Shown piece by piece: positions 11,863-17,831 of a stretch of 40,354 bases of DNA. Source of the DNA: an uncultured bacterium. Lineage in GTDB: Bacteria; UBP7; UBA6624. A model generated the notes under the pieces. That model worked only from the letters and a program-made list of their open reading frames with translations. It searched no databases and had not been told where the DNA came from. Made by a program: the position numbers and the translations under genes. Location: NCBI GenBank assembly GCA_964397735.1, contig CAYNKD010000001.1:12161-52514 (forward strand), given 5' to 3'. Positions within the stretch are counted from its first letter, which is position 1. Every line of letters begins with the position of its first letter.

Positions 11863-12506
11863 AAATAGCACCTTCTATTTTAGGTTGTAATTATTTAAAT
11901 CTTGGGAAACAGGTACAGTCTGTTGTTGACGGTGGGGCTGACTGGATTCATGTTGACGTGATGGATGGTAAATTTGTACCGAACATAAGCATAGGCATAC
12001 CTATAGTCGAATCTTTAAATAGAATTCAATGTTTCCAAGATGTGCATTTGATGATTGACTCCCCTGAAGATTATGTTGAGAAATTCATTGATGCTGGTGC
12101 AGATGCTGTTTCTTTTCATATCGAGGCAACAAAAAAAATGGATGCTATTATTGAAACCATATCTTCAACTTCCTGCCTTTGCGGTATAGCTCTTAATCCT
12201 GATACGAATATTAAAGAAATTTACTCACACTTGCACAAAATTGATTATGTTGTTATTATGTCTGTCTTTCCTGGTTTCGGAGGTCAGAAATTTATTGAAT
12301 CTACTCCAGAAAAAATTACTTGTTTAAGTTCTTTTAGAAAAGAAAATAAATTAAATTTTGAAATTGAAATTGATGGAGGGGTTACAAAAGAAAATGCAAA
12401 AGTTTTATTCAATGCAGGGGCTGATATTCTTGTTTCTGGTTCAGGCATATTCAAGCATGATTCCCCCGCTCAAGCTGTGAAGGAAATTAGAGACTTGTGT
12501 TGTTGA
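11859..12506 (+). CDS. rpe: Ribulose-phosphate 3-epimerase.
   Basis: The N-terminus reads MKIAPSILGCNYLNLG...GADWIHVDVMDGKFVPNISIG. The PGFGGQKF and IEIDGGV motifs are also present. Confidence 0.9.
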   Translation: MKIAPSILGCNYLNLGKQVQSVVDGGADWIHVDVMDGKFVPNISIGIPIVESLNRIQCFQDVHLMIDSPEDYVEKFIDAGADAVSFHIEATKKMDAIIETISSTSCLCGIALNPDTNIKEIYSHLHKIDYVVIMSVFPGFGGQKFIESTPEKITCLSSFRKENKLNFEIEIDGGVTKENAKVLFNAGADILVSGSGIFKHDSPAQAVKEIRDLCC

Positions 12507-13636
12507 AAAAATTTACCAGTGAATCTGTCACAGAAGGGCATCCAGATAAGCTCGCAGATAAGCTTTCCGATGCTTTTTTAGACTTCTCTTTATCTTTTTC
12601 GGGTGGAAAAAAAAGAGTGAAAGCGGCAATAGAAACTATGTTTACTGGGAAGTATGTAATTATCGCGGGGGAGGTTTCTGAATTTCTTTTAGAGAAAGTT
12701 AAAAAAGAATCTCAGAGCTTGGTTGGTAAGGTTTTGAGAGATGTGGGTTATTCTGAAGACTCTTTTGGTATGTCTTTTGACGAGATTAAAGTTATCGAGG
12801 ACATCAATCCACAAACAGGTGAACTTGCTAAACCCCATGACTTTCAAAAGGACGAAGAGGTTTCTGGAGACCAAGGAATGATGTGCGGTTTTGCTTGCTT
12901 GGACACTGACGTTTGGATGCCTGCAGCAATTTCATGGTCTCATGATTTGGCAAAAAAGTTAACTGAATTGAGGAAAAAAAATATATTGCCATGGCTTAGA
13001 CCAGACGGTAAAACACAGGTAACTGTTGCGTATAAGAAAGGTATTCCTTTTGTGGATACTGTTGTTTTGAGCACTCAGCATGATGAAAATGTTGATTTAG
13101 ATTTTTTAAGGAATGAATTACAGCAGAAAGTTGTTAATGATGTTCTGTCTAAGCATTTAACTAACGATAGCAAATTCTGTATTCAGGAGTCAGGATCTTG
13201 GTCTGAAGGTGGGCCTGTTGCAGATACTGGCTTAACTGGCAGAAAAATAACGGTCGATACATATGGCGGTTATGTTCCAAATGGAGGAGGTGCCTTTAGT
13301 GGAAAGGACCCAACAAAGGTCGACAGGTCAGGAGCTTATTATGCTAGGTTTGCTGCCGTTAAAGCTCTTGAGGCCTTCAAGAATAAAGAATTAAATAGAG
13401 TAGAAATCCAAGTTGCTTATGCCATTCATCAAAAAACCCCAATTTCTCTTTTCATAAAAACAAATAGAAGCGATCTTGATCAAGAGGTTGGCAACTTTGT
13501 GAAAAGTTTAAATTGGGATTTGTCTAACATCAACAAGAAATTAGATTTGTGGAATAGGAAATATGAACCATTATCCTCTTATGGCCATTTTGGAAGAAAA
13601 GATTTGAATTTACCTTGGGACCCCTCGGTAAATTAA
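12497..13636 (+). CDS. metK: S-adenosylmethionine synthetase.
   Basis: Motifs seen are FTSESVTEGHPDKLADKLSD, GDQGMMCGFA, GGGAFSGKDPTKVDRSGAYYAR and a HFGR-containing C-terminus. The start is GTG. Confidence 0.9.
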   Translation: MLLKKFTSESVTEGHPDKLADKLSDAFLDFSLSFSGGKKRVKAAIETMFTGKYVIIAGEVSEFLLEKVKKESQSLVGKVLRDVGYSEDSFGMSFDEIKVIEDINPQTGELAKPHDFQKDEEVSGDQGMMCGFACLDTDVWMPAAISWSHDLAKKLTELRKKNILPWLRPDGKTQVTVAYKKGIPFVDTVVLSTQHDENVDLDFLRNELQQKVVNDVLSKHLTNDSKFCIQESGSWSEGGPVADTGLTGRKITVDTYGGYVPNGGGAFSGKDPTKVDRSGAYYARFAAVKALEAFKNKELNRVEIQVAYAIHQKTPISLFIKTNRSDLDQEVGNFVKSLNWDLSNINKKLDLWNRKYEPLSSYGHFGRKDLNLPWDPSVN

Positions 13637-14748
13637 TGCATAAAAGGTTTAATTTCGATTCTGTTTCAGGGATAGACGTACTTGAGGAAGTTAAGGAAAA
13701 AATCTCCTGTTCTTTAGGTAGGTTTGCGCCAATAAATCCCTCTTCTAGACATTTGCTTGGGCAGGAAGTTGCATCAGTTATCGATTCTTGTACAAACAGC
13801 ATTGTGAAGGGTTTAGGTTTAAAAGGTTTTTCAAGTGGGGTTTGGACAAGTTCTGCAACAGAGGCTCATTACCTGATAGCAAATTCAATAAAGCCCAAAA
13901 AGGTCGTTGTTCCAAGGGGTTCGCGTCTAAGCTTGTTAAATGCAGCAAAAACATTATCCATCAAGCATGGTTCAGAATTAATAACTCCAAAGTTCAACAA
14001 TATTCATGGTTTTGACTTGTCTTTACTCGAAAATTTAAATGAGGAAGATGTTCTTTTTATGGAAGCTTCTTGTGCTGAAGTGGGTTTTGTTCAGGATTTG
14101 CAAGCCATTTCTTCAATTGTCAAAAAAAACGGTGTAAAAGTTTTGGTAGATGTCTCTTCTTCAGCTGGGTGGGTGAAGATGAATGATTTGTTGGATTTTT
14201 CTGAATGGGTAACTCTATCTTTTTTTAGATTTGGAGGGCCTCCAGGAGTTGGTTTTATTACATCAAAAAAAAACAATTTTAAACCTATTTTTTCAGGAGT
14301 TGAACAGGAGGGATTTAGGGGAGGGTGCATGTCTTTGGGTTTGATCGAAGGAGCGGCTGTTGCACTATCTTCTTTTGAAGAAGAATTTGAATCTGCAATC
14401 AAAAGGAAATGGAACAATTCTGTTTTGAACCTAGGGACTTTTTTAAAAGAGGGATTAAAAGTTAATGAATTTAAATTTAAGAGACGATTGCCTCACTCTT
14501 TGTCTTCATGGAGCAATTGTGTTGATTTAGACGCTTTTAGAATGAATCTTGCACTTGAAGGTATTTATATCGGAACAGGGCCTGCATGTATTTCTGGAGC
14601 TGGAAAAAAAAGTGAAATTTTAGAAGATTTAAATATCGAGATGACAGAAAGCCTTCTTGTTTCTCCCGATTTAAATCTAAGATTTGAAGATCTGGAATAT
14701 CTTTATGAAAGTTTTGAAAAAGCTTGGAATTATGCAAAAATTACATAA
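13636..14748 (+). CDS. Class V aminotransferase / cysteine desulfurase (NifS/IscS)-like protein lacking the PLP lysine.
   Basis: WTSSATEAHYLIANSI resembles TSGATEANN, VDVSSSAG resembles DA.Q, and GTGPACISG is the Cys loop. TLSFFRFGGPPGVGF aligns to SGHK.YGPKG.G with HK replaced by FR (AGA codon at 14227-14229). I chose ATG 13636, which overlaps the metK stop (TAATG). Confidence 0.7.
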   Translation: MHKRFNFDSVSGIDVLEEVKEKISCSLGRFAPINPSSRHLLGQEVASVIDSCTNSIVKGLGLKGFSSGVWTSSATEAHYLIANSIKPKKVVVPRGSRLSLLNAAKTLSIKHGSELITPKFNNIHGFDLSLLENLNEEDVLFMEASCAEVGFVQDLQAISSIVKKNGVKVLVDVSSSAGWVKMNDLLDFSEWVTLSFFRFGGPPGVGFITSKKNNFKPIFSGVEQEGFRGGCMSLGLIEGAAVALSSFEEEFESAIKRKWNNSVLNLGTFLKEGLKVNEFKFKRRLPHSLSSWSNCVDLDAFRMNLALEGIYIGTGPACISGAGKKSEILEDLNIEMTESLLVSPDLNLRFEDLEYLYESFEKAWNYAKIT

Positions 14749-14965
14749 ATTAGATACTAGAGGTTTTCTTTGCCCTCTTCCTATAATTAAGCTAAATAAG
14801 CTTGTTGGAAGTTTGAAATCGGATTGTGTTATTGAGCTTGTTTCTGATGACCCTGTTTCGGATTTAGACATTCCTGCATGGTGTTTTGATAACAATCAGG
14901 ACCTGATAAGCGTAGAAAAGGAAAGAAAATGCTTTATTTTCAGGATAAATATAAGAATTTTATGA
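14732..14965 (+). CDS. tusA: TusA/SirA-family sulfur carrier protein.
   Basis: The LDTRGFLCPLPIIKLNK...DDPVSDLDIPAWC motif with the conserved CP is present. ATG 14732 overlaps the end of the preceding gene. The ORF-track start at 14684 adds an unlikely leader. Confidence 0.75.
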   Translation: MQKLHKLDTRGFLCPLPIIKLNKLVGSLKSDCVIELVSDDPVSDLDIPAWCFDNNQDLISVEKERKCFIFRINIRIL

Positions 14966-15051: not shown

Positions 15052-15082
15052 GGGGAGAGTCTTAGGGCTCTCCCTTTTTTTT
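15052..15082 (+). terminator. Rho-independent terminator for the plus-strand metK-nifS-like-tusA unit.
   Basis: The stem gggagag (15053-15059) pairs with ctctccc (15068-15074) across an 8-nt loop, followed by T8 (15075-15082). The stop codon of the convergent minus-strand gene sits in the loop. Confidence 0.8.
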
Positions 15083-16036
15083 GTTAATTTTAATTATTGA
15101 AATAATTCCAATTGGAAAGCCTATCCATAATGTTGCAAGCCTTGTTAAGAATGTTCCACTGGCAGCAACTTGTGCCTCTAACCCTATTCCAACAAGCAGT
15201 TTGGTTAGTGTGACCTCAGTTGCTCCAAGCCCTCCAGGGATAAAGGAAAGGGCTCCAGCAAGCATTGAAGAGGAATAAAATCTAATTGAAATTGCCATGT
15301 TCTCTATAAAGGTAAAAGGAATATCGGCACCAATTGCCTTTAGGCAAAGCAGGCAGGTAATACCTTCTAGTACCCAGGCAAGCCACCCCCATACCACAAG
15401 CCTGAACATATTTTTTTTTAGCAAGTTTAATGTTTCTGAAAAAGTTTCAATAAATGCTTCTTTTGATTCGATTGAATTTGATTTATTTATTATTTTGGTC
15501 CCTAGTGTTTTTCCTAAAAAGAATAAAAACATGGCAATCAGTAGGCCAAAAACCCATGATCCAATTGTCACCTGGATTGAACTTTCATAAAAATACTTAT
15601 TATCACTTGTTAGTAAATAAACAATAATTGGAAAGGAGAGAATTGCAACACCCGCAACATCGCTAGTTCTTTCGATCCAAATGATAGGCATGCTTTTTCT
15701 TGCGGGTATTTTTGCCAATTCATACAAATGTAAACTTTTTGAAATTTCTCCAATTTTCCCTGGAGTAAAAGTGTAAAAGAATCCTGAAAAAAAAGATAAA
15801 AAAGATTTTGAAATATTGATCTTTTCACCACTTTCTTTAAGAAGCCAGTGCCAGCGATAAGCTCTTAAAATATAATTCAAGAAAGCAAAAAAAACTCCTA
15901 TCAGAACCAGGTAAGGATTGAAGTTTTCGATTATTTCGAAGTTTTTTGCATCTGAATTAAAAATCCAAATAGCATATAGAGATATTGCAATTGCAGTATA
16001 GGTCCAAACCAATTTTATTTTATTCATATATTGCAT
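15062..16036 (-). CDS. Polytopic membrane protein of the UPF0104 / LPG-synthase-TM (flippase-like) family.
   Basis: It has multiple hydrophobic helices and the motif FFYTFTPGKIGEISKS, typical of this family. The ORF-track start at 16108 overlaps the upstream gene by 89 nt. ATG 16036 or 16027 is more plausible. Confidence 0.5.
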   Translation of the reverse strand: MQYMNKIKLVWTYTAIAISLYAIWIFNSDAKNFEIIENFNPYLVLIGVFFAFLNYILRAYRWHWLLKESGEKINISKSFLSFFSGFFYTFTPGKIGEISKSLHLYELAKIPARKSMPIIWIERTSDVAGVAILSFPIIVYLLTSDNKYFYESSIQVTIGSWVFGLLIAMFLFFLGKTLGTKIINKSNSIESKEAFIETFSETLNLLKKNMFRLVVWGWLAWVLEGITCLLCLKAIGADIPFTFIENMAISIRFYSSSMLAGALSFIPGGLGATEVTLTKLLVGIGLEAQVAASGTFLTRLATLWIGFPIGIISIIKINKKKGEP

Positions 16037-16801: not shown

Positions 16802-17245
16802 CTATTTTTCTTTTTTGACAAGCTTGATATTGCTCATCTCTATTTCCGTGGTTAATGATTTTGTCATATCGTAAATATTCAACAAGGCAATCATTACTGC
16901 ATTAATTGCTTCAATTTCAACTCCTGTTTCAGACTTGGTTATAGCTTCTGATTTGACCAGGACAGAATTATTTTTCCATTCCGTAGTGATGTTGATTTTT
17001 TTTAGGTTTATTTGATGGCAAAGAAGGACAAGTTCAGATGTTTTTTTTGCTGCATTTATGCCGGCTATTTTCGCAACACTAAAGATGTTACCCTTTTTGC
17101 TTTTGGGGTCTTTCTTCAGTTGATCTGCAATGTTTTTAGGAAAAGTGATTAGTCCTTCAGCCGTAGCTTTTCTTTTTGTTATTTCTTTTCCTGAAACGTC
17201 GACCATATTTACGTCTCCCTCTTTGTTGAGATGTGTTATTTTCAA
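16802..17245 (-). CDS. moaC: Cyclic pyranopterin monophosphate synthase MoaC.
   Basis: The pattern KITHLNKEGDVNMVDVSGKEITKRKATAEG is present. TTG 17245 follows AAGGAGGT with 5-nt spacing and overlaps the moaE stop (TTGA). The ORF-track ATG at 17266 is the alternative. Confidence 0.85.
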   Translation of the reverse strand: MKITHLNKEGDVNMVDVSGKEITKRKATAEGLITFPKNIADQLKKDPKSKKGNIFSVAKIAGINAAKKTSELVLLCHQINLKKINITTEWKNNSVLVKSEAITKSETGVEIEAINAVMIALLNIYDMTKSLTTEIEMSNIKLVKKEK

Positions 17246-17613
17246 ACCGTTACCTCCTTTTTCCATACGGGAAGTTTTTTTTTACATTCGTCAAGAATCC
17301 ATTTTGCCGATTCAAAGGCTTCCCTACTGTGCTTTGTTAAAACTCCAATTTGTATTGAAATTTCATTTGGTCTTATTTTTCCGGATCCATGTTTTATTAA
17401 GATGTGTTCTATTTCCCATTTTTTTTTAGCTTTTTTAATGATTTTTTCTCCTTCAGCCTCTATCATTTTTTCATATATTTCATAATTTATAAAACCAACC
17501 TTCTTCCCATTGTTTGGACTTCTAACAGTTCCTTCAAAAAGAACCCATGCTCCAGTAGATTCACTGAAAGGTCTTTTTAAACCCTTTAGATTTCCTTTTT
17601 GAAAGATTGTCAT
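17242..17613 (-). CDS. moaE: Molybdopterin synthase catalytic subunit MoaE.
   Basis: The patterns GAWVLFEGTVR and HSREAFESAKWILDECKKKLPVWKKE are present. ATG 17613 overlaps the moaD stop (ATGA). The ORF-track start at 17673 lies inside moaD. Confidence 0.85.
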   Translation of the reverse strand: MTIFQKGNLKGLKRPFSESTGAWVLFEGTVRSPNNGKKVGFINYEIYEKMIEAEGEKIIKKAKKKWEIEHILIKHGSGKIRPNEISIQIGVLTKHSREAFESAKWILDECKKKLPVWKKEVTV

Positions 17614-17831
17614 CCTCCTGACATGGGTGGCAAGAATGCCAATTCTGAATTCTCTGGGACAGTTGCATCCCATTTGCAGAATTCAAAATTTAATGCTGGT
17701 TTAATTTGTTCGATATTTAGATTTATTTCCTTGTCCCATACTTTTTTTGGAGTTATGTTTTTTTCCCAAGGTATTCTTTTTTCTTTCCATCCCAGGTCGC
17801 TTGAGAGGCTCCCGAATACTATTATTCTCAT
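17610..17831 (-). CDS. moaD: Molybdopterin synthase sulfur carrier subunit MoaD.
   Basis: The protein is 73 aa and ends in FLPPMSGG (C-terminal GlyGly). It lies between moaA and moaE. Confidence 0.8.
   Translation of the reverse strand: MRIIVFGSLSSDLGWKEKRIPWEKNITPKKVWDKEINLNIEQIKPALNFEFCKWDATVPENSELAFLPPMSGG

Follow-up and report, generated by a model that had tools for sequence, protein, structure and literature searches.

The stretch of DNA considered here (the window, 40,354 nucleotides, positions 12,161 to 52,514 of contig CAYNKD010000001.1 in assembly GCA_964397735.1) comes from an uncultured bacterium of the GTDB lineage Bacteria; UBP7; UBA6624, whose metagenome-assembled genome (MAG) of 1.04 Mb is 72% complete, with a guanine-plus-cytosine (GC) content of ~35%. 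It contains a three-gene unit, metK-psNifS-tusA, the middle gene of which, here called psNifS, encodes a relative of the NifS/IscS cysteine desulfurases that, judged from its sequence, has lost the machinery for pyridoxal 5'-phosphate (PLP) while the sulfur-carrying cysteine is kept. As Table 1 shows, the genes of the unit are packed tightly. The metK stop codon and the psNifS start codon overlap (TAATG), and the ATG of tusA at 14732 produces a 17-nt overlap with psNifS, so that both the overlap and the position directly behind metK described in the initial annotation are confirmed from the coordinates. The unit ends at a terminator-like hairpin placed between convergent operons.

Table 1. Features of the metK-psNifS-tusA unit and the neighboring molybdopterin genes, in window coordinates.
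Feature	Position	Strand	Remarks
metK (S-adenosylmethionine synthetase)	12497..13636	+	First gene of the unit; 3/3 Pfam S-AdoMet_synt domains match
psNifS	13636..14748	+	370 amino acids; predicted class I NifS/IscS-fold protein without PLP-binding residues
Arg97 codon CGT	13924..13926	+	Substitutes for the PLP-stacking His104; invariant in the family
Phe197-Arg198 codons TTT AGA	14224..14229	+	Substitute for His205-Lys206 of the Schiff-base motif; AGA at 14227-14229
Cys318 codon TGT	14587..14589	+	Predicted mobile-loop persulfide cysteine, in G-T-G-P-A-C-I-S-G-A-G
tusA	14732..14965	+	77 amino acids; Cys14 within the L-C-P-L-P motif
Intrinsic terminator-like hairpin and T-run	15052..15085 (hairpin 15052-15075)	+	10-bp stem with 6 GC pairs, then TTTTTTTGTT
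moaC	16802-17266	-	Pfam MoaC
moaE	17242-17613	-	Pfam MoaE
moaD	17610-17831	-	Open reading frame ends in SGG
moaA	17832-18812	-	Pfam Mob_synth_C/Radical_SAM

The motifs by which the initial annotation had recognized the protein are all found in its translation (SSATEAH at residues 72-78, VDVSSSAG at 171-178, SFFRFGGPPG at 195-204, SGVEQEGFRGG at 220-230 and GTGPACISG at 313-321), and its reading of the two codons, Arg in place of the PLP lysine and Phe in place of the preceding histidine, is correct. In a HMMER alignment, S-F-F-R-F-G-G-P of psNifS falls under S-A-H-K-M-Y-G-P of solved cysteine desulfurases, with F-R exactly below H-K. The alignment with E. coli IscS (MG1655), our reference for the residue map, likewise puts Arg198 under Lys206. 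The losses extend well beyond this pair (K206 to R198 and H205 to F197). H104 has become R97, K105 L98, D79 H78, Q183 S175, T243 C231 and R354 L341, and N155 has no counterpart because it falls in a two-residue deletion; T76, D180 and C328 are kept as T75, D172 and C318. Among the 147 full-length proteins closest to psNifS in a set of 1.84 billion representatives, the same columns hold Lys in 143, His104 in 145 and Gln183 in 138. The loop cysteine is invariant both in the psNifS family and in these canonical relatives (147/147). The activity of IscS requires each of H104, D180, Q183, K206 and C328 (PMC9978102), and three of these five indispensable residues are changed in psNifS. A different lysine as replacement for the PLP lysine is ruled out, since the nine-sequence alignment of the psNifS family contains no invariant lysine anywhere. 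The PLP-dependent desulfurase reaction, as it is known, is one that psNifS, judged from these residues, should be unable to carry out.

The family assignment and the predicted structure place this stripped protein among the class I enzymes. The Aminotran_5 model (PF00266) matches psNifS with 42.5 bits against a cutoff of 21.5, as befits a class V aminotransferase (fold type I) architecture, whereas the curated NifS/IscS equivalog models give only 50-58 bits against cutoffs of 530-643 (TIGR03402, 58 bits against 530.75; TIGR02006, 56 bits against 643). An AlphaFold2 model built from a 16-sequence alignment has a predicted local distance difference test score (pLDDT) of 89.3 and a predicted template modeling score (pTM) of 0.90. 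The Cys loop, residues 318-322, is the sole part of the model with a pLDDT below 50, which points to flexibility, as expected of the mobile loop of a class I enzyme. The top Foldseek matches of the model are T. maritima NifS, A. fulgidus IscS, H. pylori NifS and the E. coli IscS-TusA complex, with template modeling (TM) scores of 0.82-0.86. The model thus predicts a class I NifS/IscS fold for psNifS, and descent from a class I cysteine desulfurase is the best explanation of the protein. Measured against the class I desulfurases (EC 2.8.1.7), psNifS has the fold, Asp180 and a cysteine on a long mobile loop; it lacks the Schiff-base lysine, His104/Gln183/Thr243 and Arg354/Asn155, and it stays below the equivalog cutoffs. 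In genome annotation, proteins like psNifS should not be named 'cysteine desulfurase'.

These losses are a property of a family rather than of one assembly. A word-indexed search returned seven psNifS orthologs with 55-78% identity, all of which read S-F-[FY]-R-F-G-G-P and P-R-G-S-R-L-S. An exhaustive profile search gave only four representatives at E <= 1e-30, and below them ordinary NifS proteins follow at ~108 bits. The GTDB phylum of the host consists of 8 species only, 7 in one family and 1 sister-family genome (G007), and psNifS is present in 7/7 genomes of the host's family-level lineage. In the higher-GC sister genus within the family (G001) the protein has ~34% identity and reads S-F-Y-R; in a high-GC metagenomic relative (P0018) it has 36% identity and reads S-F-H-R. 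Arg thus occupies the PLP-lysine position in every psNifS ortholog, with neither the lysine nor the His-Lys pair restored in any of them, which answers the question of conservation that the initial annotation had left to be checked. Eight independent assemblies all carry an uninterrupted, full-length frame, in keeping with its argument that the change is no single sequencing error.

The codons of the two arginines vary by lineage, Arg198 being encoded by AGA, AGG or CGG and Arg97 by CGT, CGA or AGG. That both residues are invariant across these synonymous changes argues for selection on the amino acid. Pairwise ratios of nonsynonymous to synonymous substitution (dN/dS) are 0.085-0.18 for psNifS and 0.09-0.16 for metK, and the two are indistinguishable; psNifS is under strong purifying selection and is maintained like a housekeeping gene. 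The most conserved seven-residue stretches of the family are segments of the former active site (PRGSRLS, SFFRFGG and ACISGAG), and invariant residues are enriched in such segments (26/67, as against 40/303 elsewhere; Fisher p = 5e-6). In a maximum-likelihood tree the psNifS family is monophyletic (SH-aLRT 100) and nested in the class I desulfurases, on a stem of 1.6 substitutions per site. The long stem together with the later constraint suggests that the family changed rapidly at first and was held in place afterwards. The tree, which does not include the archaeal Lys-to-Asp sequences, leaves the branching of the class I radiation around the psNifS clade unsettled. Two other, independent losses of the lysine occur among the 147 nearest relatives, and neither protein joins the psNifS clade. 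One (P0156; K to N, H-N for H-K; metagenome contig L048, 3437-5033) overlaps a gene for NifU_N, an arrangement like that in Archaeoglobus; the other (P0068; K to R, H-R; L047, 3092-4276) is flanked by mutL and a tRNA methyltransferase gene, with no TusA or IscU neighbor.

The constant partner of psNifS is the gene downstream of it. The TusA Pfam model (PF01206) matches the encoded protein with 53.8 bits against a cutoff of 28.6, in agreement with the two-layer alpha/beta domain of these carriers, and the protein has the CPxP-type cysteine motif as L-C-P-L-P. The NCBIfam TusA equivalog model gives 41 bits against a cutoff of 78. By these scores the protein appears to be a member of the TusA family that falls below the curated cutoff for an equivalog of E. 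coli TusA. Each genome encodes one TusA. The gene order metK-psNifS-tusA is kept in all lineages, including the sister genus and the P0018 contig (L018), on which metK is present as an upstream fragment. The overlap between tusA and psNifS is 17, 14, 8 or 4 nt depending on the lineage, and in one of them (L009) tusA follows after ~9 nt. Hence the pairing noticed in the initial annotation extends, overlapping or abutting, to every ortholog, and psNifS is strictly and translationally coupled to tusA. Neither an IscU nor a NifU gene lies beside psNifS in any lineage examined.

The remainder of the genome frames what this pair might do. Elsewhere in it is the second, canonical desulfurase that the initial annotation had recommended looking for: a sufC-sufB-sufD-sufS-sufU cluster encodes a canonical SufS (S-G-H-K; 467 bits to TIGR01979) and a SufU (152 bits, above the cutoff), the latter being the sole U-type protein and sitting beside an active-type SufS. 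The genome also encodes MnmA, a PvdN-like class V enzyme in which the lysine is present, and a MoeB homolog (contig C43, 4861-6054) with a C-terminal rhodanese domain, one of only two in the genome, whose loop C-K-S-G-V-R-S is of the MoeZ/MOCS3 type. DsrE/TusBCD proteins were found nowhere in the 8-species phylum, and a relay of the TusBCD/DsrE kind was rejected on that ground. A second SufS (contig C118, L002, 1-1938; sufD and the start of sufS) was rejected as contamination, as its contig has 59% GC rather than ~35%. About a dozen further short contigs at 52-63% GC look like contaminants too.

The search for a canonical class I NifS/IscS found none in the 7 carrier genomes, each of which is 72-86% complete. 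The sister-family genome (93% complete) has the opposite complement, namely a canonical NifS (S-S-H-K; about 485 bits to TIGR03402) and no psNifS, and its TusA stands alone. The psNifS proteins share 23-26% identity with this NifS, and the tree does not resolve orthology between them. The NifS gene lies directly downstream of one for a 363-aa PP-loop ATPase (L035, G007:C2, 3785-6561), with which it may form a dedicated desulfurase-thiolase pair. The ATPase shows weak similarity to ThiI/MnmA.

Downstream of the unit, at a distance of 0.1-4 kb, lies a convergent operon for an LPG_synthase_TM protein, an S-adenosylmethionine-dependent methyltransferase, MoaC, MoaE, MoaD and MoaA. The four moa genes are 2-4 kb from psNifS-tusA, the operon is present on the P0018 contig as well, and its products are a possible downstream user of sulfur carried by TusA. 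As to gene boundaries, the first in-frame start of moaE, at 17673, would overlap moaD by 64 nt; ortholog lengths of 122-128 aa favor a start at the 17613 ATG, with a 4-nt overlap (ATGA) between it and the moaD stop.

Taken together, the observations lean modestly toward psNifS being a non-catalytic persulfide relay or adaptor for the co-encoded TusA. Donor, direction of flow and acceptors are all what we infer. Cys318 on the flexible loop would receive sulfane sulfur, for which SufS or SufS-SufU is the most plausible donor, and would pass it to Cys14 of TusA. TusA would in turn feed the rhodanese domain of the MoeZ-type protein for thiocarboxylation of MoaD in molybdopterin synthesis, and could possibly supply MnmA for the thiolation of tRNA (s2U34). 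With two invariant arginines along its walls, the former PLP pocket would be rebuilt rather than decayed, and may serve as a dock for the Cys loop or as a binding site for an anionic ligand. The initial annotation had offered a sulfur-relay or scaffold role as one interpretation and a different chemistry as another. The fold, the loss of the lysine along with five or six further PLP- or substrate-binding residues, the Cys loop and the TusA partner on which it drew all stand, while the role itself is what we infer from them. Both halves of the proposal have precedent, as E. coli TusA receives sulfur from IscS for molybdenum cofactor synthesis and tRNA thiolation (PMC2854127, PMC11446229), and the lysine-less IscS of A. 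fulgidus is inactive, yet functional with its partner (PMC7585200).

Several points weigh against a relay from SufS through psNifS to TusA. The residues of E. coli IscS that contact TusA are only partly kept in psNifS (W45 is Q43, E49 is S47 and R55 is T53, with D52 retained as D50), and R27 and R31 of TusA are changed too. The complementary distribution of psNifS and canonical NifS rests on a single outgroup genome. The entire 15-kb region is syntenic across the lineage, which makes the closeness to the moa genes weak evidence of a functional link. We know of no instance in which SufS, a class II enzyme, hands sulfur to a protein of the class I fold. Finally, the extreme conservation of the former pocket exceeds what a pure scaffold would need.

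The last of these points is the starting place for an alternative that we consider unlikely but the strongest of those remaining, namely that the rebuilt pocket performs new chemistry. Arg97 and Arg198, together with the kept Asp172, Thr75 and Ser195, would bind a different and probably anionic ligand, for example thiosulfate or another sulfane-sulfur donor, which Cys318 would attack, giving a sulfur entry independent of both PLP and cysteine. The conservation of the former active-site segments and the enrichment of invariant residues there are what such an activity would lead one to expect. Both replacements are arginines retained through switches between codon families, and the long stem followed by strong constraint is a pattern of neofunctionalization. 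The same segments, however, also form the structural core of the canonical enzymes, the substrate-carboxylate arginine Arg354 was lost rather than gained, and no thiosulfate-related genes are seen beside psNifS-tusA. A more specific form of the idea, which we hold to be rather doubtful, makes psNifS-TusA a self-contained sulfur-mobilizing module that works without PLP or cysteine, the Arg/Arg pocket binding an anionic sulfane-sulfur donor and Cys318 loading TusA. If true, such a module would supply molybdopterin and tRNA thiolation in a lineage that lacks a class I desulfurase, and would put the desulfurase fold to a new enzymatic use.

It is improbable that psNifS is still a vitamin B6 enzyme, one that holds PLP or pyridoxamine 5'-phosphate (PMP) non-covalently through Asp172, Thr75, Ser195 and stacking by an arginine, and that, without an internal aldimine, keeps some desulfurase or lyase activity, slow or altered. 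PMP-dependent sugar dehydratases lack the lysine and provide an analogy, and the equivalents of Asp180, Thr76 and Ser203 are indeed invariant in the family. The K206A variant of IscS still binds PLP and reacts very slowly, but a single mutation of H104, Q183 or K206 is already enough to abolish the activity of IscS (PMC9978102), and psNifS has lost H104, Q183, H205, T243 and N155 as well as the substrate-binding Arg354, without any family-invariant lysine to compensate.

A little more improbable again is a role as partner in iron-sulfur (Fe-S) assembly of the Archaeoglobus type, in which the cysteine of psNifS would serve as a cluster ligand for a U-type scaffold instead of relaying sulfur to TusA. 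The A. fulgidus IscS (K to D) acts in this way with IscU (PMC7585200), its structures (PDB 4eb5/4eb7) are among the top fold matches of the psNifS model, and the unrelated K-to-N homolog P0156 adjoins NifU_N. Yet psNifS has no IscU/NifU gene beside it in any lineage, SufU, which is encoded inside sufCBDSU next to an active SufS, is the only U-type protein, and the invariant partner of psNifS is TusA. The MAG is 72% complete and includes some contaminant contigs, but the possibility that psNifS is decaying, or that it is an artefact of sequencing or assembly, whether through errors or through relaxed drift in a fast-evolving, reduced genome, has next to no likelihood, and a pseudogene or sequencing error is excluded, given the intact full-length frames of 8 independent assemblies, a dN/dS equal to that of metK, substituted residues (the synonymously encoded arginines among them) that stay invariant despite synonymous variation, and the high-confidence AlphaFold2 model.

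Comparison with known systems shows how far the reading of psNifS as a relay or adaptor for TusA departs from what has been described. The nearest cases are archaeal. A. fulgidus IscS2 (AF0564; PDB 4EB5, 4EB7 and 4HVK, with the D199K variant 4R5F) has Asp in place of the lysine and no activity, and ligates the IscU cluster; IscS1 of Methanosarcina acetivorans (MA0808) is another described lysine-less IscS (PMC7585200). These proteins share with psNifS the class I IscS fold, the missing Schiff-base lysine and the kept loop cysteine, and the A. fulgidus structures are among the best matches of the psNifS model (TM 0.82-0.84). The archaeal proteins are retained with a partner despite having no desulfurase activity (PMC7585200), and psNifS is likewise retained with one. 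The differences lie in the substitutions, the partners and the hosts. In the archaea, which are anaerobes, the change is Lys to Asp, the partner is IscU and the purpose is Fe-S assembly, whereas psNifS combines Lys to Arg with His104 to Arg, is paired with TusA with no IscU nearby, and belongs to an oxic marine bacterium that has a full SufCBDSU and no active class I enzyme. As psNifS forms a long-branched clade of its own, its loss of the lysine is probably independent of that in the archaeal proteins. A search of the literature library for an inactive desulfurase paired with TusA brought up only the lysine-less proteins of A. fulgidus and M. acetivorans. The existence of lysine-less IscS proteins in Archaeoglobus/Methanosarcina lowers the novelty of psNifS, and what is new here is the coupling to TusA and the Arg/Arg variant.

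The E. coli IscS-TusA complex (PDB 3LVJ) offers the closest parallel for the pairing itself, with the same fold (TM 0.82-0.84), a TusA-family partner with the CPxP cysteine and a mobile Cys loop, which in E. coli delivers persulfide to TusA (PMC2854127, PMC11446229). E. coli IscS, in contrast, is an active PLP enzyme, while psNifS is without seven PLP- or substrate-binding residues and does not conserve W45, E49 and R55 of the interface; iscS and tusA are not adjacent in E. coli, as psNifS and tusA are, and the psNifS lineage has none of the TusBCD/TusE relay found there. In B. subtilis, class I desulfurase-acceptor pairs, YrvO-MnmA and NifZ-ThiI, exist alongside SufS-SufU (PMC13066941). The psNifS lineage has the same architecture, with SufS-SufU for Fe-S clusters and, apart from it, a class I paralog whose gene is paired with that of a dedicated sulfur acceptor, except that YrvO and NifZ are active PLP enzymes, whereas psNifS is catalytically stripped and its acceptor is TusA.

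Here, then, is a stripped class I paralog that is under selection at the level of a housekeeping gene, always accompanied by TusA, in hosts without an active class I enzyme. This suggests that loss of the PLP chemistry with retention of the persulfide loop happens repeatedly in evolution; the one case described before is that of the archaeal protein and its partner IscU. Sulfur bound for Fe-S clusters, molybdopterin and thiolated tRNA universally enters through cysteine desulfurases, and psNifS-TusA is a small system in which to ask how TusA, MoaD and MnmA obtain their sulfur in an organism limited to SufS-SufU. The protein could also reveal whether the former PLP pocket has gained a new ligand.

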